Origin: an uncultured delta proteobacterium
Lineage (GTDB): Bacteria; Desulfobacterota; Desulfobaccia; Desulfobaccales; 0-14-0-80-60-11
DNA: 32,000 bases
Reading direction: 5' to 3'
Assembly (NCBI GenBank): GCA_963841475.1
Contig: CAWJCT010000002.1
Location: forward strand, 17,177 to 49,176
The first letter of the stretch is position 1. Each line of letters starts with the position of its first letter. This document shows positions 15,048-28,445 of this stretch, in pieces. Made by a program: the position numbers and the translations under genes. The notes below the pieces were generated by a model. The model worked only from the letters and a program-made list of their open reading frames with translations, was not told the DNA's origin and did no database searches.

Positions 15048-17841
15048 TTATTCCTCCAGGACCTGGCGGCAGCGGGCGCACACCTGGGGATGGTTGGGAT
15101 CTTCCCCAACCGAGGGAAAGCTGAACCAGCAACGGACGCATTTTTCGCCGGTCGCTTTACTCACCAGCACCACTAAGCCAGGAATCTCGGTCGGAGACCA
15201 TGCCTGCCCCCGAGAGAGATTCGATGGGTTCGACAGTGAATTCGGCCACTTGAGCCAGGGTTTGAAGCTCCGCGTTCTGAGCCTTCAGTTTATCGTACAG
15301 TTCACCCCCTGCCCCCAAAATTACCACGGCCTCCTGGGCCGTGGCAATGACGCTTCTCCTTCCGGGCCTCTTCCAGCCCTCGGTTGATTTCACCCCGCAC
15401 CTTGAGCAGGAAGTCGTACTTGGCCAGCAAGGCCTCGTCGGGAAACCCCGGGGGCGGCTCGGGAAGAGCCGCCCAGGTGGACGCTCTCGGGGCGGCCCGT
15501 GCCAGGAAGGTACTCCCAGATCTCATCGGCGGTAAAAGAGAGGATGGGGGCCATGGCCAGGGTCAGGCCCTGGAGCAGGTCATATAACGTGCTCTGGGCG
15601 CTGCGGCGTTCCCGGGAATCGGCTTTGGAGACGTAGAGGCGGTCTTTCAGGATGTCCAGGTAGATGGAGCTCAGTCTCCACGGCGCAAAACTGGTGCAGG
15701 CGGTGGAAGGCCTGGTGGAATTCGTAATCCTCGTAGGCCCGTTTGACCCGGGCCAGCAACTGGGCCAGCCAGGACAGGGCCAGGCGGTCCAGTTCCTCCC
15801 GCGGCGCCCGGCGTCAGCCAGTGGCTCCCGGGGTCGAAGTCGTAGAGGTTGCCCAGCATGAAGCGGGCGGTGTTGCGGAAGCGCCGGTAGGCGTCGGCCA
15901 GCTGCTTCAGGATGTCCGGAGACAGCCGCACGTCGTCCCGGTAGTCCTCCGCCGCCACCCAGAGCCTGCAGGATCTCGGCGCCGTACTTGTCCATGACTT
16001 CCTGGGGGGCGATGACGTTGCCCAGGGACTTGGACATCTTGCGGCCGTCGCCGTCCACCACGAAGCCGTGGGTCAGCACCCCCTTATAGGGGGCGTGGCC
16101 CCGGGTGCCCACGCAGGTCAGGAGGCTCGAATGAAACCAGCCCCGGTGCTGGTCCGAGCCCTCCAGGTAGAGGTCGGCGGGCAGGGCCAGGGTCCGGGTC
16201 GGGTTCCACCACCGCGGCCCAACTCACCCCGGAATCGAACCAGACGTCCAGGATGTCGGTCTCTTTTTTGAAGTCGGAGGCCGCCGCAGGCGCATACGGT
16301 CCCCGGCGGGCAGCAGGTCGGCGGCCGGGGTGTCGAACCAGAAATCCGCCCCCTCGGTGCGCACCCGCTGGATGATCCCCTGGAGAATTTCCGGGGTGAG
16401 GAGCACCGCGGCCGCACTCCCGGCAGTGAAAGGCCACGATGGGCACGCCCCAGGCCCGCTGCCGGGAGATGCACCAGTCCGGGCGCCGCTCCACCATCTG
16501 GTAGATGCGCTCCCGGCCCCAGCGGGGAATCCAGGTGACCCGGTCGATGGCCGCCAGGGCCTTGCTCCTGAGATCGTTGGCCTCCATGGAGATGAACCAC
16601 TGCTCCGTGGCCCTGAAGATGATGGGCTGCTTGCAGCGCCAGCAGTGGGGGTAGCTGTGGGTCAGGTCCGCGGCCGCCAGGAGTTTGCGGCGCTCTTTGA
16701 GGAGTTCGATAATGCCGGCGTTGGCCTCCCAGACTTTTTGACCGGCAAACTCCGGCACTTCCTGGGTAAACTTGCCGCCGTCGTCCACCGGCGAGTAGGG
16801 CGGAAGATTATACCGGCGGCCGCTGTCATAGTCCTCCTGGCCGTGCCCCGGAGCGATGTGCACCAGGCCGGTGCCCGCCTCCAGGGTGACGTAGTTCGCC
16901 AGGATGACCTGGGAGTCCCGGTCCAGCCAGGGGTGCCGGCAAATGGCGCCTTCCAGGGCACGTCCCTTGACCCGGAAGATCTCTTGGCCCTCAAGCCCCC
17001 AGGAGTTCAGCAGTCCCTCGGCCAGGTCCGCGGCCACCACCAGGACTTCATTGCCGGTATCCACCGCGGCGTATTCCAGGTCCGGGTGCACCGCGATGGC
17101 CAGGTTCGCCGGCAAGGTCCAGGGGGTGGTGGTCCAGATGACCAGGGAGACATTTTCGTGAGCGCCCAACTGCGGCAGATTTTCAGGGGCCTTACCCAGA
17201 GAAAATTTCACGAAAATCGTCGGGGTGCGCTGATTCTCGTATTCCACCTCGGCTTCGGCCAGGGCGGTGCGGCAGGTGGCGCACCAGTGGATGGGCTTTT
17301 TGCTCCGGTGAATGGCGCCGCTGAAGTAAAACTGGCCGTATTCCTCCAGGATTTCCGCCACGTAAGCGGGCCGCATGGTGAGGTAGGGATGGTCCCAGTT
17401 CCCCAGCACCCCCAGGCGCTGGAATTCCCGGCGCTGGATGTCGACGAACTTTTCGGCATAGGCCCGGCAGCGCTGGCGAATCTCCACCTTGGACAGACTG
17501 CCGCCTTTGGCCTTGAGCTCCTTGCCTACCTGGTGCTCGATGGGCAGGCCGTGGCAATCCCAGCCCGGCACGTAGGGGCTGTCGTAGCCCGTCATCTGCC
17601 GGGACTTGACGATGATATCCTTGAGAATCTTGTTTAAGGCATGCCCCAGGTGAATGTGGCCGTTGGCATACGGGGGGCCGTCGTGGAGCACAAACTTGGG
17701 ACGCCCCTTACTTTGGGCCCTGATCAGGCCGTACAGGTCGAGGTCGGCCCAGCGTTCCAGAAACAACGGCTCCCGCCGGGGCAAATCGGCTTTCATGGGA
17801 AAATCGGTGCGGGGCAGGTTAAGGGTCTCTTTGTAATTCAT
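15048..17841 (-). CDS. ileS: isoleucine--tRNA ligase; about ten frame breaks, all in the 3' 1.25 kb
   Basis: ATG 17841 has GGAGG 7 nt upstream: [25 protein letters not shown] motif [57 protein letters not shown] ([10 protein letters not shown]), and a C-terminal Zn motif GEKCVRCW...[11 protein letters not shown] ending at TAA 15050..15048. The frame is clean from 17841 to ~16410. Shifts then occur near ~16405, ~16300, ~16280, ~16205, ~15968, ~15808, ~15670, ~15485, ~15355 and ~15190. Confidence 0.93.
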
Positions 17842-18021
17842 CCAGCAGCCTCCGGAAGACAATTTTATTATGGTATCACATCCTATCCCGGCAAGGAATC
17901 AATAAGACACGGGGGCCCCAGGCCCGAATCCGGGAGCGCCCACCGTCCGGAGCCCGGCAAAAGCAACGGCCGGCGCCCCGGCTACCTTGACCGGAGGCGA
18001 ACCTTTGGGATAAGATGAGGC

Positions 18022-19413: not shown

Positions 19414-20130
19414 ATGGCCAAAGGAGGCAGCATGGCCAACGTTTTTTTAGCGGCAGCTTTGTTATCCAGCATCCTGGCGGTATCGGGGTGCATGGGGGGG
19501 CTTCTTCCCAATCTTGGGGGTTTAGGGGCTTCCCTTGGGGGCTACCCCTCCCAAGGAGGCTACCCTGCCTATGGGGGGGGCCAGCCCTACCCCTATAATC
19601 CCGGGGCCGGCGGGGGCTATGCCCAGCCGGGCCAATCCTATTATCAACCGCAGCCCTACGCTTATTCCGGTTCCGGCAACCCAGAAATTTACTACCAGCC
19701 GACTCCCCAAGCGAGCCCGGGGTATACTGCTCCTTCGCCGGATCGTTGGACCGATCCGCGTCAGTTGCGCCGGCAGGCCCGCATCCAACCAGGACAGGCT
19801 TCCGGGCAATTAACCCCCAGAGAAGCCAGGCGTTTGCAAAGGGAGCAGCGGCGGATCAGGGGTGGGCCCGGACAGATGGGAGCCGATGGCAACCTGAGTA
19901 CTCAAGAACAGGGCCGCCTCAATCGCAGAACACCGGGAAGCAGCCAGAACATCTACGGGCCGGGGCAGAATGGCGTACAACCCGGACCTATGACGCGGTC
20001 CCGGCCCACGAGGGCCCAGCCGCCTGTGGCGCAAGCGCGCCCGGGGGGACAAGCGCAAGCCGAGGTCCAACCTCGAGGTACAGCCCAACCGCGGACCACC
20101 ACTCAGCGGCGGCATGAACAGCCGCAATAA
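19414..20130 (+). CDS. predicted lipoprotein with a Gly/Tyr/Pro/Gln low-complexity N-terminal half and an Arg/Gln-rich repeat C-terminal half
   Basis: Signal plus lipobox: MAKGGSMANVFLAAALLSSILAVSGC (alternative start ATG 19432 after AAGGAGG). This is followed by GGYPSQGGYPAYGGGQPYPYNPGAGGGYAQPGQSYYQPQPYAYSGSGNPEIYYQP. The C-terminal half carries two G.L(T/S)..E...RL..R units (GQLTPREARRLQREQRRI; GNLSTQEQGRLNRR). A terminator follows. Confidence 0.65.
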   Translation: MAKGGSMANVFLAAALLSSILAVSGCMGGLLPNLGGLGASLGGYPSQGGYPAYGGGQPYPYNPGAGGGYAQPGQSYYQPQPYAYSGSGNPEIYYQPTPQASPGYTAPSPDRWTDPRQLRRQARIQPGQASGQLTPREARRLQREQRRIRGGPGQMGADGNLSTQEQGRLNRRTPGSSQNIYGPGQNGVQPGPMTRSRPTRAQPPVAQARPGGQAQAEVQPRGTAQPRTTTQRRHEQPQ

Positions 20131-20238
20131 CGGCGGCGGCGAGGGTCGCCTCACGTAAACCCGGGGTGGCTGCCCGAATCCCCTTTTAGCTAAAAAGGTC
20201 GCGGCCGGGGTCTCCGGCCACGGCTCACCAGATTGAAG

Positions 20239-20275
20239 CCAGGACTCCCCCGTGATGGGAGTTCTGGTTTTTTTT
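20239..20275 (+). terminator. rho-independent terminator of the lipoprotein gene, between convergent genes
   Basis: 11-bp stem CCAGGACTCCC (20239-20249) / GGGAGTTCTGG (20257-20267) with one G-U pair, a 7-nt loop, then T8 (20268-20275). Confidence 0.85.
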
Positions 20276-20313
20276 ACCTGACTTCGCCCCCGGAGTGACG
20301 ATCGGGGCCGCCC

Positions 20314-21897
20314 CTATCTGAGAGATTTCGCCTTGTCAAAATCCAGGCGAGCCCGCTCTTCATCGCCTCTCTTCTGATGACACCTGCCGCGCAGTTCATA
20401 GGTCTCGGCCAGTTCAGTATTTAAAGATATGGCTTTGGCGAAGTCATCGAGCGCTTCTTCAAACTTTCTTCTTTCCATGTAGACCGTACCGCGATTCTTA
20501 TAAGCTTTGCCATAGCCGGGATCCAACGTGATCGCCTGATTAAAATCCTGGAGGGCCGAATTAAAATCGTTTCTGGCCAGGAATGCTTCTCCCCGGCCGT
20601 TATAGGTGGCGGCATTGCGCCAATTCAGCGGCAGGGCGTTGCTGAAATCGGTAAGGGCCAGGTCATATTTCTTGGTGCGCACGTAGAGATTGCCCCGGTT
20701 GAGGTAGGCCTCGAGGAGCTTCGGATCCAGATTGATAGCCTTATTATAATCCTCTAAGGCCTGGTCCAACTTACCCTGGAAAGCAAAGAGAAAACCGCGG
20801 TGGCTATAGGCCTTAGCCAGTTTGGGGTCTAACGCGATGGCCCTTTCATAATCCCTGAGGGCCTGGTCATATTCTTTGTTCTCATAAAAAACGAAACCCC
20901 GGTTGCAGTAGGCCTCGGCAAAGCCGGGGTTTATAGAGATAGCCTGGTTGAAATCCGCCATTGCCTGAGACTGCTTATCCAAGCCATCGTAGACCAACCC
21001 CCGGAGATTATAGGCGTTGAAGGAGTTGGTGAGGCTGGCGATGGCCTTGTCCAGGTCTGGGACAGCCTTTTGGTACTCCTTTTTATCTAAATAAGCCCCG
21101 CCCCGATGGATGTAGTAATAACCGGGTTTGGGGTTCAACTTAATAGCTTTGTTCATCAGGACGATTTTTTCATCGGGATCCTTGAGATTTCTGGCTTTTT
21201 GGAAATATTCGGCTGCGGCTGCTTCGGCGGCAGCGCCAGTGGGTGGTGCGGTCTCCTTGGCGCCCTCCGTCCGGCTCGACGGGCGCCTCTCAACCGCCAT
21301 CCAGACCACGCCCCCGGCCACTGTCGCCCCGATCACCAGGCCTAATAGAACCGCAAGTATTTTCCATTTGGGGACCCTCACGGTAATGGCGGCGGTCTCA
21401 TCGGCCGGCGCCACCCGCGGCCTCGGGCGCACCGGCACCTCTTCTTCTTCAGGAGGGGGGGACTTCAGGTGGGGTTCGACCACCTTCTCCCCCTGTTTGG
21501 AGATGATCGACTGGAGGATGCCCACCAGACTGTCCAGATGTTTCTCCAGGGGGGGCGTGAAGGCATCGAGCCAATGCTGGGTGCTGATAAAGTATTCCAG
21601 AGTCTTGGAAGGCAGGACATCATCAATGCGGAAGGGCACTACCGTGACGCCCTTGTTGACCGCCCGCTCAATCTCCCGCTTAATTTGCGGCGAGGCATTG
21701 GAATTGGCCGAAAAGACCAAAATCATGACCTTGCTTTCGTGGATTGCATCGATAATGGATTCCCCCCAATCGCTTCCGGGCATGACATCCCTGGGGGCAA
21801 TCCAGACGCGAATGCCGTTGGCCTCCAGGGAGGCGCAGATGGCGTCCGCCGTGGTCTTGTCCTTGACGGAATAACTGACGAAGACATCGTGTGCCAT
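20314..21897 (-). CDS. TIR domain / single TM helix / nine TPR repeats protein (527 aa from ATG 21897)
   Basis: Intact ORF (track 20314..21903). ATG 21897 has GGAGAAG 6 nt upstream. N-terminal TIR_2-like block DVFVSYSVKDKTTADAICASLEANGIRVWIAPRDVMPGSDWGESIIDAIHESKVMILVFSANSNASPQIKREIERAV. TM helix WKILAVLLGLVIGATVAGGVVWMAV. Nine units follow with an exact 34-aa period (for example EAYCNRGFVFYENKEYDQALRDYERAIALDPKLA). Confidence 0.88.
   Translation of the reverse strand: MAHDVFVSYSVKDKTTADAICASLEANGIRVWIAPRDVMPGSDWGESIIDAIHESKVMILVFSANSNASPQIKREIERAVNKGVTVVPFRIDDVLPSKTLEYFISTQHWLDAFTPPLEKHLDSLVGILQSIISKQGEKVVEPHLKSPPPEEEEVPVRPRPRVAPADETAAITVRVPKWKILAVLLGLVIGATVAGGVVWMAVERRPSSRTEGAKETAPPTGAAAEAAAAEYFQKARNLKDPDEKIVLMNKAIKLNPKPGYYYIHRGGAYLDKKEYQKAVPDLDKAIASLTNSFNAYNLRGLVYDGLDKQSQAMADFNQAISINPGFAEAYCNRGFVFYENKEYDQALRDYERAIALDPKLAKAYSHRGFLFAFQGKLDQALEDYNKAINLDPKLLEAYLNRGNLYVRTKKYDLALTDFSNALPLNWRNAATYNGRGEAFLARNDFNSALQDFNQAITLDPGYGKAYKNRGTVYMERRKFEEALDDFAKAISLNTELAETYELRGRCHQKRGDEERARLDFDKAKSLR
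20320..21222 (-). other. TPR array, about 9 repeats (aa ~228-528)
   Basis: Recurrent (A/T)Y.(N/H)RG..(Y/F).....(Y/F)..A(L/I).D(F/Y)..AI.L(D/N)P... with a 34-aa register from aa ~262 to 528. Confidence 0.9.
21292..21366 (-). other. single transmembrane helix (aa 180-204)
   Basis: 25 uncharged residues are flanked by RVPKWK (N side) and ERRPSSR (C side). Charge flanks do not decide the orientation. Confidence 0.75.
21520..21891 (-). other. TIR domain (aa ~5-128, ORF-track numbering)
   Basis: The pattern FVSYS...D....A..I...L...GI.VW...RD..PG..W...I..AI..S.....V.S.NS..S..I..E.E.A matches bacterial TIR_2. The candidate catalytic Glu is E77 in SPQIKREIERA (by-eye alignment to the S..W...E position). 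Confidence 0.8.
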
Positions 21898-21921
21898 TAT
21901 CACTTCTCCTCAGGTGATTGG

Positions 21922-21957
21922 GAGATATATCTCTATCCCGGCTCAATTAATTGAGCC
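21922..21957. promoter_or_regulatory. two perfect palindromes in the 94-nt spacer between the cyclase gene and the TIR gene (operator or RNA hairpin candidate)
   Basis: GAGATATATCTC (21922-21933, 12 nt) and GGCTCAATTAATTGAGCC (21940-21957, 18 nt) are both perfect. They lie 25-60 nt upstream of the TIR start codon. Confidence 0.5.
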
Positions 21958-21997
21958 CCGGAACGGCCAGGCACCCTCCGTACCTCAGTGGCCGGCC

Positions 21998-24286
21998 TCA
22001 CAAACCCGAGCGGCGCACCAGATACAAGGGAATGATGCCGGCATGTTTGGGCAGCGGGATCCGCCCCACGTACTCACAGGTAAAGCCCTGGACCCGCTGC
22101 GTGGACGCCAGGGCCGCAAATTGCTGGCTGGCGTACACCTGTCCCGGCGGGGTTATGGGTTCAATGCGGGCCGCCCGGACGATATGGGAGCCGGCGTAGG
22201 CCAACTCCTTGAAGAGCGGCTTTTTGTAGCAGTAAACCGGTCCGGCGTGCAGGGAGATGCGCAGATTGACCTCTTTGGGCAATCCCTTGGCCTGCCAATC
22301 GGTATCGACCACCAGGTCCCGCAACTTGAGGGCGAAATTGCCCCCGTCCTGCACCGAGGCGAAGACGGAATACAGGGCATCACCCCAGGTGTTGGTCAAC
22401 AAGGGCCTCTCGGGGGACTCGGCCACCAACTTATTGATGGCTCCCATAAAATATTCGACGAAGTTCGGGACCTGTTCCTCCATGATCTTACTGGACCCGA
22501 CCACATCGGCGAAAAGCATGGCCCTGATTTCCTCGGTAAAGCCCCGGGGCACGGACGCCACCGCCTCAGCCGGGGCCGCCGCTGGCGGGGTGGCAGCGGC
22601 TGCGGGCCCCAGGGGAGGGGTGTCGGCCAGCAGCCGGTTAAGGTCGATAATCTCAGGCTCCAGACCGTGGGAACGCCAGTGCTGCACCAGGCTGCTGGTG
22701 CCCCCGGGACCATCCCCCGCCCCGCCATCCCATACTACCAGGGGGATCAGTTCGGTATCCAGCATCTTCGTCCGCAGTATTGCCAGGCCATCGAGCAGCA
22801 GATTGGTGTATTCATAGACCATGGCATTCCCGGAAGCCCGGTTCTCGCTGGCAATAATAACCTGGCTGGCCTGCTCGAGCACCGCCTCGAACCGGGAACC
22901 CCAATCGCTCCCGGGGATGAGGTTAACGCTGCCCTTAAGAAAATCCTCCTTAAAGTGCGGGAGGATGATGTTGATCTCCCCTTCTCGTTTCAGCATGGCC
23001 TCGAGGAATAAAATGTCGGAACCGCACGCGGCTGAGGCGAACCCGATCCTGGCATCCACTCGCGCCAGGGTGGCGGCGATCTCTTGATATATCTTCGGGG
23101 CCAAATAATCCGGGAAACGAGGCTTCGGCCGGCCGGGCTGGTCGATCATGTGGCCGGCAAAGACCACCACCCGGGGAATTTGAAAGCAGGCTTCGATCCG
23201 TTGTTTCTGGTCAGGGTCCAGGTCCATCACGGTGAAGAGCAGCCGGGCGTTGCGCCGGGTGGAGGCCAGATCGCCATATCTCTGACCAGCCCCCCGGCCG
23301 GCCTGCGTGTACCACTTGATGGCGTCGCTTATCTCCCCCCGGATCAAGGCGGCTTCGCCCAAAGTGGCCCGAAGCCAATACAACTCCCCCGGATCCCCGG
23401 TTACCCGGGAAAGCTCCTGGAGACATTGCTCCGTGACCCGGTTCGCCAGGGCCGTGGCCTGCTCTTGATCATGTAAGGACCTGGCCAAGGTGGCGGCGTT
23501 GATGCCGGACCAATAGCCCCCGGTCCTCTCATAGGCCGAAGCGTAGGTTTCGTAGGCCAGCCTCCACTCCCTGGTCTTGTCCTTGAGGTCGGTGGCCAAG
23601 TTGGCGAAATCCTTATGGGCCCGGGCCAGGAGCCCCAGGGTCTCCTCATCGCGGTTATCCTCGCCAAACAGCTTCTGGAGCACCTCCAGGGCCTGCTGTA
23701 CCGCCCCGGAGCGCAGCAGCGCCAACGCCAGCAATTGTCGTAAGCGGGTCTCCTGGGGCCAGAGTTTGAGCCCCTCGGCCACGACGTCGTAGGCCAGCAG
23801 CGGCTCTCCCAACCTCATGATGTGCTGGCCGAGGTCCTGATAGAGTTTTGTCGGGAAGGGCCCGGAGCTCGATTTTAAGGTTTGCCAAAGCTCAATGGAT
23901 TTTACCAGGTCGAGGTTGTTCAGATCATCGCCGAGATGCTGCACTGTGGCCAGGTCCCCATAGGCCAGCAAGGTGCAGGCGGGGCCGGATAGGGCCGGAC
24001 GTGCGGGGGGGTCGACGCGGTATCCCAAGGCCAGCATGCCCTGGACGACACCCAGGGAGATTTTCCGATCGTATTCCTTCTCCGATTCCGGCAGGTCGTC
24101 GTAGGGGACGATGCAGGGGTGCTCCTTGAGCAAATCATCGCGGCGCTGCCCGTGGGTCCACCCGTCGGCCAAACGTTGCCGCACCCAATTATCATGGGTA
24201 ATTTCTGCCAACTGCTCCACCAGATCGATTAAATCTTTAGGAACCGCCACCGTGGTGAGATCAGGCGACTTGGGCACGTATGACAT
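21998..24286 (-). CDS. multidomain signalling protein: RyR domain / helical TPR-like (DUF4071-like) region / LOG-SLOG-like Rossmann module / class III nucleotidyl cyclase domain
   Basis: Intact 764-codon ORF (track 21998..24292). ATG 24286 has GGAG with a 6-nt spacer. There is no TM and no signal peptide. Domain evidence is given in the four sub-features. Confidence 0.85.
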   Translation of the reverse strand: MSYVPKSPDLTTVAVPKDLIDLVEQLAEITHDNWVRQRLADGWTHGQRRDDLLKEHPCIVPYDDLPESEKEYDRKISLGVVQGMLALGYRVDPPARPALSGPACTLLAYGDLATVQHLGDDLNNLDLVKSIELWQTLKSSSGPFPTKLYQDLGQHIMRLGEPLLAYDVVAEGLKLWPQETRLRQLLALALLRSGAVQQALEVLQKLFGEDNRDEETLGLLARAHKDFANLATDLKDKTREWRLAYETYASAYERTGGYWSGINAATLARSLHDQEQATALANRVTEQCLQELSRVTGDPGELYWLRATLGEAALIRGEISDAIKWYTQAGRGAGQRYGDLASTRRNARLLFTVMDLDPDQKQRIEACFQIPRVVVFAGHMIDQPGRPKPRFPDYLAPKIYQEIAATLARVDARIGFASAACGSDILFLEAMLKREGEINIILPHFKEDFLKGSVNLIPGSDWGSRFEAVLEQASQVIIASENRASGNAMVYEYTNLLLDGLAILRTKMLDTELIPLVVWDGGAGDGPGGTSSLVQHWRSHGLEPEIIDLNRLLADTPPLGPAAAATPPAAAPAEAVASVPRGFTEEIRAMLFADVVGSSKIMEEQVPNFVEYFMGAINKLVAESPERPLLTNTWGDALYSVFASVQDGGNFALKLRDLVVDTDWQAKGLPKEVNLRISLHAGPVYCYKKPLFKELAYAGSHIVRAARIEPITPPGQVYASQQFAALASTQRVQGFTCEYVGRIPLPKHAGIIPLYLVRRSGL
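22013..22531 (-). other. class III adenylate/guanylate-cyclase-type domain, aa ~588-760
   Basis: IRAMLFADVVGSS (metal Asp D595), TWGDALYSVF (metal Asp D638), NLRISLHAGPVY, and YAGSHIVRAARIEPITPPGQVYASQQF (the G..VN.AaR-like block with Arg R709). Confidence 0.8.
22658..23179 (-). other. LOG/SLOG-like Rossmannoid putative nucleotide-binding module, aa ~372-545
   Basis: A strand-Gly start (IPRVVVFAGHMID), then a Gly/Ser-rich helix start (RIGFASAACGSDILFLEAMLKREGEINIILP), then LIPLVVWDGGAGDGPGGTSSLVQHW. The last block resembles the LOG-family PGG.GT..E motif in position and composition. Confidence 0.5.
23189..23920 (-). other. all-helical TPR-like region, possibly DUF4071 / MAP3K TRAF-binding-like, aa ~125-368
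   Basis: Helical repeats (LRQLLALALLRSGAVQQALEVLQKL; ETLGLLARAHKD; WRLAYETYASAYERTGGYWSGINAATLA; LYWLRATLGEAALIRGEISDAIKWY). The Y.GINAATL motif is recalled from DUF4071-type proteins; this is tentative. Confidence 0.45.
24017..24241 (-). other. RyR (ryanodine-receptor repeat) domain, aa ~18-92
   Basis: LAEITHDNWVRQRLADGWTHGQRRDDLLKEHPCIVPYDDLPESEKEYDRKISLGVVQGMLALGYRV fits the bacterial RyR consensus (H..W...k...GW.yG...d...k.hP.lvpY..Lpe.eKe.DR...). Confidence 0.8.
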
Positions 24287-24410
24287 ACTCATCTCCTGAG
24301 GCGGAGGTCAAAACCGCTTATCGGCAACAGGGCAATGTCCTGCTTTCATCGACTTGAAAGTAAAATGGGCCGGGTAAGGACGCCCCAGTCCGATGGCAAC
24401 TCATCGATCC

Positions 24411-24438
24411 ACAATAGGTCATTTATATTTTTTGTCAA
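24411..24438 (-). promoter_or_regulatory. candidate sigma70-type promoter of the cyclase-TIR gene pair
   Basis: On the minus strand: TTGACA (24438..24433), 16-nt AT-rich spacer, TATTGT (24416..24411). It lies ~125 nt upstream of ATG 24286, inside a markedly AT-rich stretch. Confidence 0.4.
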
Positions 24439-24601
24439 TAAATACCCGGGGGTTACAGGTAAATCGCCTAAAGGAGCGCAGATTCAGGCGTACCCGGCCG
24501 AAGTTTGGGCGCCAGCTAAAAAGATTTTGAGAAATCATCGCAAAACTGATTTCCGTTATTACATGGGGTCAGCCGAAGGGGCTTACGTTGGGAAAAAATC
24601 A

Positions 24602-24621
24602 CCCCCCTTTAAAGAAGGGGG
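24602..24621. repeat. third copy of the C-run/G-run hairpin element
   Basis: CCCCCCTT-taaag-AAGGGGG followed by ACTCAA. Compare CCCCTTT-tcc-AAAGGGG followed by GACTTGA at 9221-9243. Confidence 0.45.
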
Positions 24622-24898
24622 ACTCAAAAACCTCTGGTCCTAGCCTCTTACTGGTTCAGGGAACAGGCTTACAGCCTAAGACAGGTTTTGCACCAGGTTC
24701 TGGGCAATCAGCAGCTGCCTCCCCTGATACGTGATAAATTTTCTCCCCATACCACCGATTCTTTCCTCATCCCGGAGGCCCGAAAACAGGCCCCGCCGGC
24801 CTTAACCCCGGCCGCAGTTGAAGCTCGGCCAGCCGGTGCCCCCAAAGTCGCGCCTCCGGGGCGGGGGCCGGAAGAACCTCGCCGCGGCCAGAATAGCC

Positions 24899-24927
24899 TT
24901 TACACTCAGGGCCAAGCCTAATATAAT
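24899..24927 (+). promoter_or_regulatory. candidate sigma70-type promoter of lptC-lptA-lptB(-rpoN...)
   Basis: TTTACA (24899-24904), exactly 17-nt spacer, perfect TATAAT (24922-24927). It lies 26 nt upstream of the lptC ATG 24953. Confidence 0.55.
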
Positions 24928-24952
24928 TTCAGAGGAAATCGCTAAATTTGGC

Positions 24953-25536
24953 ATGGAAAATAATTTGGATAGAGGGTCGGCTGGCCGGGGCCGCTTCCGG
25001 TGGCTCTGGGTGCTGGCCGGCATAGTGCTCCTGGCAGCAGGGGCTTGGGGGCTTTTGCGCCGCCAGCCGCCGCCCCCGCCGCCCAAGGCGGCCACGGCCC
25101 AACCCCCAGGATGGAGGGCCTCTCTCTCACCGAGATTCATGAAGGCGATAAAACGTGGGTCCTGGAGGCCAAGAAGGCGGATTTTAACCCGGACAAAACG
25201 ACCATCAGCATCACCGGGGTCCGGGTGGAATTTTTCGGGCCCGGAGAAGACATCCGGGTGAAGGCCGAGGCGGGGCTGTTTAACACCAAGACCCGGGTCT
25301 TGACCCTGAAGGGGCAGGTGGAGATGCGGCGCGGCGATCTCTGATCCAGACCAGCCTGGCCACCTATATCCCGGAAGAGCGCGCCTTGGTGGGGCCCGAG
25401 GATGGTGGTGATCACGCAACCGGGCCTCAAGGTGGAAGGCAAGGGGATGCGGGTGGAACTGGCCGACAAGAAGCTGGTGATCGCCCAACACCACTTCACC
25501 GAATTGCAGGTTAAGGATTGGAGGGGCAAGCGTTGA
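24953..25536 (+). CDS. lptC: LPS export system protein LptC; three frame breaks as sequenced
   Basis: N-terminal TM anchor MENNLDRGSAGRGRFRWLWVLAGIVLLAAGAWGLL. Then MEGLSLTEIHEGDKTWVLEAKKADFNPDKTTISITGVRVEFFGPGEDIRVKAEAGLFNTKTRVLTLKGQVEM, then IQTSLATYIPEERALVGPE and VVITQPGLKVEGKGMRVELADKKLVIAQHH. This is the LptC beta-jellyroll pattern, and the gene sits directly before lptA/lptB. Shifts lie near ~25105, ~25340 and ~25402. TGA is at 25534-25536. Confidence 0.75.
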
Positions 25537-26163
25537 AACGCCACGGGTTTTTAGTCCTCGCCGGGATTCTGGTGATATTGTGGGCCGGTTCGTCCCTGGC
25601 GTATGGCGCCCCCCCCAAGAAGCCGGGACCGGAAAAAGAGGTCCCCCTGCACATCACCGCCGCCCGCCTGGAAGCGGACCAGACCAAAGGGCTGGTCATC
25701 TTCACCGGTCCGGTGAAGGCCGTGTACGGCGATGCCACGTTATACTCGGATCAGCTGCAGGTCTACTTTAAGGCTAAACCGGCGCCTCCCAAAGGAACCC
25801 CCACGCCCCCCCAGGAAAAGGCGGGGCAGTCGCCCTCTCGGTGATATGGGAGCCGAGAAAATTGACCGCATCGTGGCCAAAGGCAACGTGCGCTTCGTCC
25901 AGGCGGACCGGGTGGCCACCGGGGATCAGGCCATTTACTACAAGGACCGGGATGAGGTAGTGCTGACGGGCAACCCCCAGTTATGGCAGGCCGAAAATAC
26001 CCTGAAAGGGGAACGGATCATCTTCAATCTCAAGACCAAGAAAGTGCTGGTGGAAAGTTCACCCCAACGCCGGGTGGAAGCCCTGCTCTACTCCCAGGGG
26101 GCTGCCGAAGGCAAAGCCAAGCCGCCTCTGAGCCCTAAAGCCCGCAAGGGCCGCCAGCCTTAA
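25533..26163 (+). CDS. lptA: LPS transport periplasmic protein LptA (OstA-like); one frame break as sequenced
   Basis: TTG 25533 overlaps the lptC stop (TTGA), with GGAGGGG 6 nt upstream. Signal peptide LKRHGFLVLAGILVILWAGSSLAYG. Conserved blocks include PLHITAARLEADQTKGLVIFTGPVKAVYGDATLYSDQLQVYF and, after a shift near ~25838, IDRIVAKGNVRFVQADRVATGDQAIYYKDRDEVVLTGNPQLWQAENTLKGERIIFNL. Confidence 0.8.
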
Positions 26164-26955: not shown

Positions 26956-28445
26956 ATGGCCTTAGAAATCAGACAGAGCTTAAAACTAACTCAATCTCTC
27001 ATCATGACCCAGAAATTGCAGCAAGCCATCAAGCTGCTGCAACTTTCCCGTATGGAACTGGTGGGGGAAATTACCCAGGCCCTGGAAACCAACCCGGTCC
27101 TGGAAGATGATCAGTTTGAAGAAGAGCCGGTACCGGGAGAAGAAGAGCTCAGTCTGGGGAATCTATCCCCTGGCGATGGAGCGTCGCCGGAGGAGGCCAA
27201 ACCCGACGGCGAGGCCAAATCCACCACGGAAGACTGGGATTGGGACAGCTTCCTGAAAGATCGGCTCATGCCGCCCCCCATGGGCGAATACGAAGAACGG
27301 GAGGCCCTGTCCTTCGAGTCCCTGAATGCCGAAGAGACCACCCTGAAATCCCACCTCATCTGGCAACTTCGGATGGCCGAACTGGACCAGGAAGGCGACA
27401 ATATCGGAGTGATGATCATCGGCAACCTGGACAAAGACGGCTATTTCCGGTCCACGGCGGAAGAGATCGCCGATGAGATGGGCGGATCGAACCGGCCCGA
27501 GTGGAGCAGGTCCTGGAGATCGTCCAGGGCTTCGACCCTCCGGGGGTGGCCGCCCGGGACCTGAAAGAATGCCTGCGGTTGCAGCTCAAGATCCTGGGCG
27601 TCCAGGACCCCCTGGTGCTCGATATTATCGACCGCCACCTGAACAATCTGGGGAACAAAAATTACCAGGCCATCGCCCGGGACCTGAAGGTGCCCATCGG
27701 CAGAGTGGTGGAGGCCGGCGATCTCATCGCCAACCTGGAGCCCAAGCCCGGCCGGGGTTTCGACTCCGAAGAGGCAGACTACATCAACCCCGACGTTCAC
27801 GTGGAAAAGGTGGGGGACGACTACGTCATCCGTCTGAACGATGACGGCCTGCCCAAGTTGCGGGTTAACTCCTTTTACCTGGAGGCCATGCGAGGTCCCG
27901 ATAAACTCCCGGACTCGGTCAAGAGTTACATCCAGAAACACCTGGATAACGCCCTGTGGTTTATTCGCAGCATCCACCAGCGGCAAAAGACCCTGTACCG
28001 GGTGACCGAAAGTATCGTGCGTTTCCAGAGGGAGTTTCTGGACCACGGCCTGTCCCAGCTGAAACCCCTGACCCTGCGCCAGGTGGCGGAAGACGTCCAG
28101 ATGCACGAATCCACCATCAGCCGGGTCACCACCAACAAGTATGTGTATACCCCCCAGGGAGTCTTTAACCTCAAGTTCTTCTTCAACAGCGCCATTAACA
28201 TGTCTTTGGGGGAACAGATCGCCTCGGAAAGCGTCAAGGAAAAGATCCGCCAGCTCGTAGCCGGCGAGAACCCCGAGAACCCTCTGAGCGATCAGGAGAT
28301 TGCCGATAACCTGCGCCGCCAGGATGTGATCATTGCCCGGCGCACCGTGGCTAAATATCGAGGTATGCTGGGGGTGCTACCCTCCAGTAAACGCAAGAAA
28401 CCCGGGTACTTACCCAAGAGCCAGCCAGAAAATCACGCCTCTTGA
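26956..28445 (+). CDS. rpoN: RNA polymerase sigma-54 factor; one frame break as sequenced
   Basis: Region I MALEIRQSLKLTQSLIMTQKLQQAIKLLQLSRMEL, an acidic linker, then after a shift near ~27480 VEQVLEIVQGFDPPGVAARDLKECLRLQL. The HTH is LKPLTLRQVAEDVQMHESTISRVTTNKY, and the RpoN box is ARRTVAKYR. Confidence 0.93.

Follow-up and report, generated by a model that had tools for sequence, protein, structure and literature searches.

In an uncultured delta proteobacterium, two adjacent genes appear to encode a Thoeris-like, two-tier nucleotide relay, in which a signal made by a TIR protein would be received by a second protein and turned into a cyclic mononucleotide (cNMP); this is the reading that we favour, with modest confidence, from sequence comparison and structure modelling. 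The pair occupies positions 20,314 to 24,438 of the window, by which we mean the whole 32,000-nucleotide stretch analysed (GenBank assembly GCA_963841475.1, contig CAWJCT010000002.1, positions 17,177 to 49,176). Gene 1 (21998..24292, 764 residues counted from the first ATG) has the architecture RyR, TPR-S, SLOG-like domain and class III cyclase, and gene 2 (20314..21903, 529 residues counted from a GTG) comprises an N-terminal TIR domain, one transmembrane (TM) helix and a C-terminal TPR array. Both genes and all of their features given below lie on the minus strand unless stated otherwise, and residues are numbered throughout in the 764-residue version of gene 1 and the 529-residue version of gene 2. 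The two intact, co-directional open reading frames (ORFs) were found as an earlier reading of this DNA, the original prediction, had described them, and its by-eye domain calls for both proteins hold in Pfam searches, hydropathy profiles and AlphaFold2 models.

Gene 1 probably starts at its second ATG (24286), which has a better-placed GGAG and gives a protein of 762 residues that matches database entry P0001 at 100%. Hydropathy analysis detected no TM segment in it, in keeping with the soluble protein of about 762 residues that had been predicted. A full-length AlphaFold2 model, for which 87 homologues were used as input (pLDDT 87.8, pTM 0.81), delimits a RyR domain (1–96), a disordered linker (97–114), an all-helical region (114–367), an alpha/beta domain (374–557), a second linker (564–577) and a last domain (586–761). 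The conservation counts reported here refer to 87 homologue sequences of gene 1.

The RyR domain is of the R12 type (residues 5–94, 24011..24280; PF02026, 86.9 bits), and its profile matches the repeats of RyR1/2/3 as well as Bacteroides 3NRT. Phage RyR-domain (PF02026) proteins bind 2'/3' cyclic ADP-ribose (2'/3'cADPR) at nanomolar affinity or cleave it, acting as nanomolar sponges or as glycosidases, and conserved homologues of RyDEP differ in whether they bind or cleave (PMC13232231). The catalytic dyad of RyDEP consists of H75 and D117, with W78 stacked on the adenine and the phosphates bound by H100 (PMC13232231). Taking DyoEdafos gp78 as the RyDEP reference sequence, residues 30–75 of gene 1 align without gaps to RyDEP residues 72–117 (BLASTP, 43% identity, E 1e-10), with H33, W36, H58 and D75 falling on H75, W78, H100 and D117, respectively. 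H33 and W36 are present in 87/87 homologues, H58 in 86/87 and D75 in 78/87. Judged by sequence, gene 1 would carry a RyDEP-type ligand site, having both the domain and the His/Trp/His/Asp set. The original prediction had treated the RyR module as something that merely stands in place of an effector, a view that does not survive, given that RyR proteins bind or hydrolyse 2'/3'cADPR and that gene 1 keeps the four key residues.

Searches with the gene 1 RyR domain also recovered RyR-domain genes in 240 phage records at 34–50% identity, including phages of Salmonella, Pseudomonas, Arthrobacter, Pectobacterium and Gordonia. Two unannotated human-gut 'Bacteriophage sp.' contigs match 87–88% of the domain at ~44% identity.

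The helical region that follows (residues 114–367, 23192..23953; 14 helices in the AlphaFold2 model) contains the Pfam TPR-S core (residues 171–270, 23483-23782; PF20308, 66.4 bits), and MAP3K_TRAF_bd scored 22.4 bits, below its cut-off. A full-length Foldseek search was swamped by cyclase matches and was uninformative on ASK1-like TPR similarity. The earlier description of this region as helical and TPR-like was right as far as it went, but it missed that this is the TPR-S domain carried by ThsI, the type VIII Thoeris effector, which responds to TIR-made canonical cADPR (10.64898/2025.12.03.692087). We recovered the type VIII Thoeris system of Yersinia enterocolitica via the ThsB sequence in Table S1 of Yirmiya et al.; its ThsI matches Pfam TPR-S at residues 207–317 with 63.8 bits. 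An hhalign comparison of this protein with the gene 1 family profile (residues 148–269) gave an E-value of 4.8e-5 and a probability of 68%, and the motifs D.ET.G...K and Y[WY].G.N.A are common to the TPR-S domains of gene 1 and ThsI. By analogy with ThsI, TPR-S appears to be a better-precedented candidate sensor in gene 1 than the SLOG-like domain, which had been proposed as the ligand sensor and which stays a candidate, although neither the only one nor the one with the best precedent.

That middle domain (residues 374–557, 22622..23173) is a SLOG-superfamily-like Rossmannoid domain with the motifs VVVFAGHMID, ASAACGSDILFLE and VWDG..GDGPGGT. Attempts to identify it by sequence alone failed: residues ~340–590 match no Pfam family at E ≤ 1, the Pfam SLOG families included, the domain has no NCBIfam or PADLOC match, and a PDB profile search was empty at E ≤ 10, so the lead came from structure prediction only. 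With an AlphaFold2 model of residues 352–582 (pLDDT 83.8, pTM 0.80), the top Foldseek matches in the PDB were DprA from two species (5mll, E 1.5e-6, probability 1.0), and further matches were ShosA, the Chlamydomonas molybdenum cofactor (Moco) carrier protein, TM1055 and type I/II LOG. The TM-scores against these SLOG-type structures are low (0.37–0.46), and TIM-barrel matches in the same list were judged to be beta/alpha noise. On these models, the SMF/DprA-LOG (SLOG) superfamily fold is supported but not proven, which agrees with the SLOG-like fold called by eye. ASAACGSD and GDGPGGT are reminiscent of the Gly-rich and PGGxGT loops seen in this superfamily, and G380, D426, E431, W464, R467, G502 and W539 are invariant. 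LOG-type enzymes have a catalytic Glu after PGGxGT (PGGxGTxxE). The middle domain, with the sequence GDGPGGTSSLVQHW, has no Glu at this position and is thus more readily seen as a sensor than as a LOG-type hydrolase. Homology to the hydrolase domain of ThsI (residues 1–196) was also considered and rejected, since hhalign found none (E 0.66).

The last domain (residues 586–761, 22010..22537) is class III nucleotidyl cyclase-like in both the Pfam and the AlphaFold2/Foldseek analyses. Guanylate_cyc matches residues 591–748 at 23.1 bits against a cut-off of 21.9, and Foldseek aligns the domain with CyaB, Rv1900c, RhGC and sGC at TM-scores of 0.75–0.80 and root-mean-square deviations of 2.7–3.3 Å. 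This is the most conserved part of gene 1. When its residues are assigned by alignment to the Chlamydomonas guanylyl cyclase 3ET6 (sGC), the metal aspartates D596 and D638 are each found in 87/87 sequences, R678, H682, G701 and E711 are also invariant, and the transition-state Arg (R709) is present in 85/87. The position of the canonical Asn is occupied by V705 in gene 1, and across the family by Ser (65), Val (12), Thr (6) or Asn (3). The specificity positions hold N634 (81/87) and the variable residue 698, and correspond neither to the canonical Lys/Asp (ATP) nor to the Glu/Cys (GTP) combination.

The family to which gene 1 belongs is large, and its composition bears on the cyclase. Searching 1.84 billion representatives with a profile of the middle domain retrieved 4,699 clusters (50% identity), of which 1,029 reach E ≤ 1e-30; the database names of these proteins are generic ('TRAFs-binding domain-containing protein', 'RyR domain-containing protein', 'class 3 adenylate cyclase/TPR'). 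TPR-S, the SLOG-like domain and the cyclase form the constant core, while the N-terminal slot holds RyR, GAF, cNMP-binding, an nSTAND1 NTPase, a second cyclase with a STAND ATPase, or nothing. Since genuine class III cyclases are classically under allosteric control by GAF and cNMP-binding domains, finding such modules in this slot supports both catalytic activity of the cyclase and a function of RyR as a regulatory module that binds a ligand. Considering these modules together with the invariant catalytic residues and the matching fold, the cyclase domain of gene 1 is probably active, although divergent.

The TIR domain of gene 2 (residues 7–116, 21556..21885) scores 85 bits with TIR_2 and 21.4 bits with ThsB_TIR, and its catalytic-type Glu, E77 (21673-21675), lies within an S..S.W...E motif. 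By hydropathy, a single TM helix spans residues 182–204 (ILAVLLGLVIGATVAGGVVWMAV, 21292..21360). It is followed by an array of 8–9 TPRs (residues 240–527, 20317..21186; TPR_1 185 bits, 8 stretches), whose best NCBIfam similarities are to MamA, PilW, Tgl and NlpI-type TPR proteins. Given that no signal peptide was found before the TIR domain, the predicted topology is N-in/C-out, which would place the TIR domain in the cytoplasm and the TPR array outside it. The Pfam search revealed no cNMP_binding domain in this protein. PADLOC gave only weak ThsB/TIR-level matches for gene 2, the best being to SAVED-TIR (8.7e-9) and to pAgo-associated TIR, and nothing for gene 1; as had been predicted, the pair matches no named system.

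The link between the two kinds of protein was followed across genomes. In a scan of one genome per species, 417 gene 1 relatives were detected and the best 80 loci were kept, with gene 1 identities of 39–92%, from Desulfobaccales/Syntrophobacterales, Acidobacteriota, Verrucomicrobiota, Bipolaricaulia, Spirochaetota and cyanobacteria. A second scan, seeded with RyR-less relatives, added 80 metagenome loci, and the pooled census comprised 94 loci from about seven phyla with at least 1.5 kb of flank on both sides. TIR genes were identified with a profile hidden Markov model (HMM) built from divergent neighbours of gene 1 homologues. They account for 45 of the 874 genes (5%) in the 80 genome loci and are clustered beside the focal gene: one or more occur in 40 of these loci, and in 31 the distance is no more than 600 nucleotides. 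The metagenome scan gave the same picture, and in the pooled set a TIR gene lies within 700 nucleotides in 44/94 loci (47%). TIR genes make up well below 1% of bacterial genes in general. Against this background, the enrichment beside the gene 1 family is large, and a functional link with TIR proteins is well supported by these gene neighbourhoods at the level of domain families.

The adjacency is kept while its form varies. The TIR gene may be upstream or downstream of the gene 1 homologue and on the same or the opposite strand, and gene order flips by lineage (upstream in loci L008–L012, downstream in L036, L042 and L053). The two most frequent neighbour families outside the delta clade were also TIR proteins. 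Among the 45 TIR partners of the genome set, 29 have an N-terminal TIR domain, one TM helix ~50–60 residues further on and a large C-terminal domain, which consists of TPRs in the delta clade, WD40 propellers in Verrucomicrobiota and Bipolaricaulia, and a ~400-residue domain in Acidobacteriota. The remaining partners are soluble, most of them TIR-DUF4062-like proteins encoded beside nSTAND1-TPR NTPases. The catalytic-type Glu is conserved in 68/69 TIR neighbours of the family. In tblastn searches with gene 2, a TIR-TM-TPR orthologue beside gene 1 was found only in seven deltaproteobacterial loci, in which gene 1 and gene 2 diverge in step (identities of 92/88, 84/82, 82/71, 57/41 and 54/41%). 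The pairing suggested by the original prediction is therefore found at domain level across phyla, but with a strict orthologue of gene 2 only in the deltaproteobacterial clade. A lineage-specific pair, as strict gene 2 synteny would have it, was dismissed because the TIR HMM shows a broad domain-level association.

The TIR link is independent of RyR. Of the RyR-containing loci, 33/66 have an adjacent TIR gene, as do 11/28 RyR-less loci (Fisher p = 0.37), so it is the TPR-S–SLOG–cyclase core that carries the link, and RyR was discarded as the sole receiver of a TIR signal.

Concerning the Acidobacteriota partners, the ~400-residue C-terminal domain of the TIR-TM proteins (L012 3425-5347 and 15 similar loci) has no Pfam match; it is presumably extracytoplasmic and a putative sensor.

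From the domain identities, conserved residues and genomic linkage observed here, we infer the direction of signalling, the ligand, the domain that binds it, the activity of the cyclase and the biological role as follows. Gene 2 would be a membrane-anchored TIR protein that, on a cue, converts NAD+ into a signal derived from ADP-ribose (ADPR), probably a cADPR isomer. Gene 1 would be the soluble receiver and transducer, reading this signal through its TPR-S and/or SLOG-like domain, the family-wide receptor, with RyR as an extra ADPR-nucleotide-binding module that might work as an allosteric regulator or as a signal-cleaving timer. The cyclase, as a dimer, would then make a cyclic mononucleotide as a second-tier output acting on targets encoded elsewhere. 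The TIR protein is placed as sensor and producer because most partners share the TIR-TM-repeat build (29/45) and nearly all keep the Glu (68/69), and gene 1 is placed as receiver because it combines a TPR-S domain as in ThsI, a SLOG-type fold as in the ThsA sensor and RyDEP-type RyR residues. The active sites of class III cyclases lie at the dimer interface, which makes dimerization necessary. Coupling through a ligand-controlled dimer geometry would be plausible, since a single RyR repeat (a homodimer in RyDEP) and class III cyclases both need dimers.

Several observations weigh against such a relay. The sequence of a TIR domain does not separate a signal-making from an NAD-depleting enzyme, and the best PADLOC matches of gene 2 are of the effector type. 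The absence of the canonical Asn, the odd specificity residues and the marginal Pfam score (23 bits) mean that the cyclase domain could be a pseudo-enzyme. The SLOG assignment draws on Foldseek probability, with low TM-scores (0.37–0.46) and no sequence-profile match. In about half of the loci, including most of the cyanobacterial ones, no TIR gene is adjacent, and among 115 operon-like non-TIR neighbours there is no recurrent cNMP-binding effector or other downstream partner, which leaves the output without an apparent target nearby. Moreover, the pair lies between housekeeping operons and off plasmids, unlike typical mobile defence systems.

The genomic setting raises the question of whether the same wiring, from TIR signal through gene 1 to cNMP, serves a physiological role, with the extracytoplasmic TPR or WD40 receptor reporting an envelope, peptidoglycan or cell–cell cue to the cNMP network of the cell. 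With leuS on one side of the pair and lptCAB-rpoN on the other, the window locus is no defence island, and this position is conserved in the related metagenome-assembled genomes (MAGs) L001, L002, L004 and L021. In L005 and L006, a gene with two SH3_3 domains and mscL follow the pair, and Omp85/BamA-like and BrkB genes flank it. No full-length family member was found among 72,556 plasmids, which leaves mobility unsupported, gene 1 has no PADLOC match, and the proposed output is a signalling enzyme, not a killing domain. Against this stand the conflict-system genes that neighbour the family in Acidobacteriota, Verrucomicrobiota and Bipolaricaulia (nSTAND1-TPR, TIR-nSTAND1-WD40 and SLOG-SLATT), as well as the fact that all characterized functions of bacterial TIR, TPR-S and RyR proteins are in phage defence or counter-defence; we regard a physiological role as a serious, though less likely, alternative. 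A different division of labour would make gene 1 mainly a negative regulator or buffer, whose RyR domain hydrolyses or sequesters the TIR-made cADPR isomer and whose cyclase-like domain is a non-catalytic dimerization or nucleotide-binding module. The conserved equivalents of the RyDEP dyad (H33 and D75), the glycosidase and sponge activities of phage RyR proteins and the departures of the cyclase from the canonical Asn, specificity residues and Pfam score are all compatible with this, and it would resemble ring nucleases or self-limiting CARF effectors. It is nonetheless unlikely, considering that RyR is dispensable for the TIR association (11/28 RyR-less against 33/66 loci, p = 0.37) and is swapped in relatives for GAF, cNMP-binding or nothing, and that conservation peaks in the cyclase region, where neither metal aspartate varies.

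Reversing the polarity, as in Pycsar or CBASS, would have gene 1 sense the trigger, its cyclase make the signal, and the TIR domain of gene 2 act as an NAD-depleting effector. It is established that TIR can serve as the effector in Pycsar and CBASS, and the effector-type TIRs among the best PADLOC matches of gene 2 (SAVED-TIR, 8.7e-9, and pAgo-associated TIR) would fit. However, the TIR partners have only a TM helix and repeats, with neither a cNMP-binding nor a SAVED domain nor any other module for sensing nucleotides. Gene 1, for its part, is matched by no PADLOC model at E ≤ 1, and three of its modules, from ADPR-ligand-binding families, would be idle. This makes the arrangement very unlikely; the CBASS/Pycsar option mentioned in the original prediction, with TIR as the effector of a cyclase signal, is not supported, gene 2 lacking a cNMP-binding domain and gene 1 any PADLOC match at that threshold. 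Finally, the two genes might be functionally unrelated neighbours. An adjacent TIR gene is missing from about half of the homologous loci, and a palindrome in the spacer of 94–100 nucleotides could split the transcription units, yet TIR genes are 5% of the flanking genes and are concentrated beside the focal gene, their adjacency recurs in several phyla with varied TIR architectures and both gene orders, and the spacer has no minus-strand promoter-like site. We disfavour this explanation as highly improbable.

Returning to the relay from a TIR signal through gene 1 to cNMP, its closest known counterpart is type VIII Thoeris, in which a TIR gene also stands beside a soluble TPR-S protein (63.8 bits in ThsI, 66.4 bits in gene 1). 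The differences are considerable: the 417 residues of ThsI comprise a 'CMP hydrolase' (DrHyd-type) domain at the N-terminus and then TPR-S, whereas gene 1 has no Pfam match to the CMP-hydrolase domain and has RyR, SLOG-like and cyclase domains instead; ThsB is a soluble TIR protein of 137 residues, in contrast to the 527-residue TIR-TM-TPR membrane protein encoded by gene 2; and the Yersinia pair is on a mobilizable element, while the window pair is among housekeeping genes. With type I Thoeris (ThsB and the SIR2-SLOG protein ThsA), the pair shares a TIR partner and a protein of SLOG-superfamily fold that might sense a cADPR isomer. The SLOG domain is the sensor in ThsA. Unlike ThsA, gene 1 has no SIR2 or other killing domain, ThsA is not in the top 50 structural matches of the middle domain, no ThsA-type effector model matched gene 1 in PADLOC or NCBIfam, and no NCBIfam Thoeris model scored above its cut-off for the pair. 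In the generic sense of Thoeris, a TIR protein with a catalytic Glu (TIR_2 85 bits, E77) is adjacent to its partner, as it is in 47% of loci, and gene 1 offers three candidate domains for binding an ADPR-type signal: TPR-S, the modelled SLOG-type fold and RyR.

As regards the locus of that validated Yersinia enterocolitica ThsI/ThsB pair (L162 3743-5414), it lies beside a MobA_MobL relaxase, TraD and shufflon genes.

The likeness to the phage RyDEP and RyR sponges consists of PF02026 itself, the gapless 43% identity over the ligand-binding core with H/W/H/D kept, and a single RyR repeat that would be expected to homodimerize. RyDEP is, however, a small viral counter-defence protein, and the RyR of gene 1 is host-encoded, fused to TPR-S, SLOG-like and cyclase domains, and TIR-linked. 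Similarly, Pycsar, which pairs PycC with a cNMP-activated effector that is sometimes a TIR protein, encodes a cyclase and a TIR protein side by side, but here the TIR protein has no cNMP-binding domain and the sensor-type domains are on the cyclase protein instead. A CD-NTase (SMODS) synthase of the CBASS type was found in neither protein in Pfam or PADLOC searches. The vocabulary of TIR, nSTAND1, WD40/TPR supermodules, SLOG, SLATT and cNMP cyclase is that of the NTP-dependent conflict systems described by Aravind and colleagues (PMC7159879), and in Acidobacteriota and Bipolaricaulia the gene 1 family has precisely such neighbours.

A further resemblance is to animal Toll-like receptors, which share with gene 2 a repeat ectodomain, one TM helix and a cytoplasmic TIR domain. 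The order is inverted in gene 2, where TIR is N-terminal, and the repeats are TPR or WD40 and not leucine-rich repeats. The cADPR–ryanodine receptor axis likewise links a cADPR-type messenger, made by a TIR protein or a cyclase, to a RyR-repeat module, but gene 1 has a lone, soluble RyR repeat joined to a cyclase and no ion channel. Both resemblances are architectural only. The boldest reading of the pair is an 'inverted Toll-like receptor', in which a TM TIR protein would detect an extracytoplasmic cue with its repeat ectodomain and make a cADPR-type messenger for a host RyR/TPR-S/SLOG protein that in turn makes cNMP; we put this forward tentatively, as an idea that may well prove wrong. If true, it would be the first TIR-initiated two-messenger cascade and the first cellular, non-viral RyR repeat acting as a cADPR-family receptor, and it would provide a tractable bacterial model for the debated link between cADPR and the ryanodine receptor.

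In work on TPR-S and the ASK-signalosome by Burroughs and Aravind (J Bacteriol, 2020), TPR-S is reportedly predicted to sense NAD-derived signals. Considering this prediction and the known logic of a TIR protein plus an effector, the finding is not categorically new. In the literature surveyed, no four-domain protein of this kind, TIR-linked cyclase output, host RyR in a TIR context or TIR-TM-repeat partner is described; the 2020 J Bacteriol paper that defined TPR-S lies outside this survey and may figure part of it. The portion of Yirmiya et al. 2025 available to us lists no RyR or cyclase effector (10.64898/2025.12.03.692087), and Kaur et al. 2020 (PMC7159879) and Kaur 2021 make no mention of RyR, TPR-S or the four-domain architecture. 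The study of phage RyR proteins by Lopez Rivera et al. covers viral proteins only and is silent on host RyR proteins, TIR operons, TPR and cyclases (PMC13232231). Characterized Thoeris-type systems all end in a killing or depleting effector, whereas the TIR-linked protein described here ends in a probable second-messenger synthase. If the proposed relay is correct, TIR/NAD-derived signalling would feed cNMP signalling, as a relay with amplification or integration and not as a direct death switch. Gene 1 joins all three families now implicated in reading cADPR-type ligands, TPR-S (ThsI), SLOG (ThsA) and RyR (RyDEP), and could serve as a test bed for the pairing of modules with ligands. Finding a host RyR repeat with intact ligand residues beside a TIR enzyme is also relevant to the question of whether such repeats are ancestral receptors of the cADPR family, and the TIR-TM-repeat partners suggest that TIR enzymes may act as transmembrane receptors in bacteria. 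The core family, with ~4,700 clusters at 50% identity, extends over many phyla.

Among the 115 operon-like non-TIR neighbours of the family are nSTAND1 and TPR proteins, two RyR genes that stand alone and LSDAT-type SLOG, in one case as a fusion to SLATT; matches to IspD and YqeY among the neighbours reflect lineage synteny. A co-directional block in a Candidatus Bipolaricaulia MAG (L007 3012-15112) encodes a TIR-nSTAND1-WD40 protein, the gene 1 homologue and an LSDAT-type SLOG-SLATT_1 membrane protein, together with a 310-residue TIR protein and a TIR-TM-WD40 protein, forming a multi-TIR island. Here the cyclase protein adjoins SLOG-SLATT_1, the effector class of type VII Thoeris, a known killing type. 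In the two most divergent delta-clade loci, the gene with two SH3_3 domains is a third co-directional gene of 210 residues after the TIR-TM-TPR gene (L005 5415-6050, L006 11281-11913). It is absent from the window, and from its sequence, its product may be a periplasmic partner of the TPR array.

Regarding the layout of the locus, gene 2 probably starts at the ATG at 21897, which has a better-spaced GAGGAG upstream and gives 527 residues. The spacer between the genes measures 94 nucleotides with the GTG start and 100 with the ATG, so the spacing of 94 given previously fits the GTG and not the 527-residue ATG version with which it had been combined. A candidate sigma-70-type promoter (24411..24438; TTGACA, a 16-nucleotide spacer and TATTGT, 10/12 matches) was confirmed as the top sigma-70 match within 20000-24900, reading 24438-24411 on the minus strand, but with 3 sites seen against 1.8 expected, its statistical support is weak. 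A terminator-like hairpin with a 9-bp stem and a T-run precedes this promoter (24601..24623) and would shield the unit from transcription coming from upstream, and another follows gene 2 (20200..20222), paired with a plus-strand hairpin (20235-20271) that serves a convergent lipoprotein gene. With such hairpins on either side, the gene pair looks like an insulated two-gene unit.

The spacer contains a perfect 18-nucleotide palindrome, GGCTCAATT/AATTGAGCC (GGCTCAATTAATTGAGCC, 21940..21957, without strand), and a second palindrome, GAGATATATCTC, directly before the ribosome-binding site, the two elements together spanning 21922-21957. The stem ends of the first are kept in L001 and L002, and the closest relatives retain the second as well. 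As no T-run comes after either palindrome, they are not classic terminators; they may represent an operator, or an RNA hairpin or element tuning the expression of gene 2. No minus-strand promoter-like site was detected within the spacer.

The convergent gene downstream of the pair (19414-20130, plus strand) has no Pfam match; its product is lipoprotein-like, with an LAVSGC lipobox and a long low-complexity body rich in Gly, Pro, Gln and Tyr. The housekeeping setting described originally is evident from leuS on one side of the pair and lptC, lptA, lptB, rpoN, hpf, ptsN and rapZ on the other. Four of these genes near the pair, leuS, lptC, lptA and rpoN, are broken into overlapping ORFs in different frames (15390-17862, 24818-26163 and 26956-28445), and the alignment of L002 LptC to the window breaks into two frames near 25081-25105. 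From the sequence, these split essential genes most likely reflect indel errors in a MAG assembled from long reads, and not pseudogenes. Unlike these neighbours, gene 1 and gene 2 are both intact.

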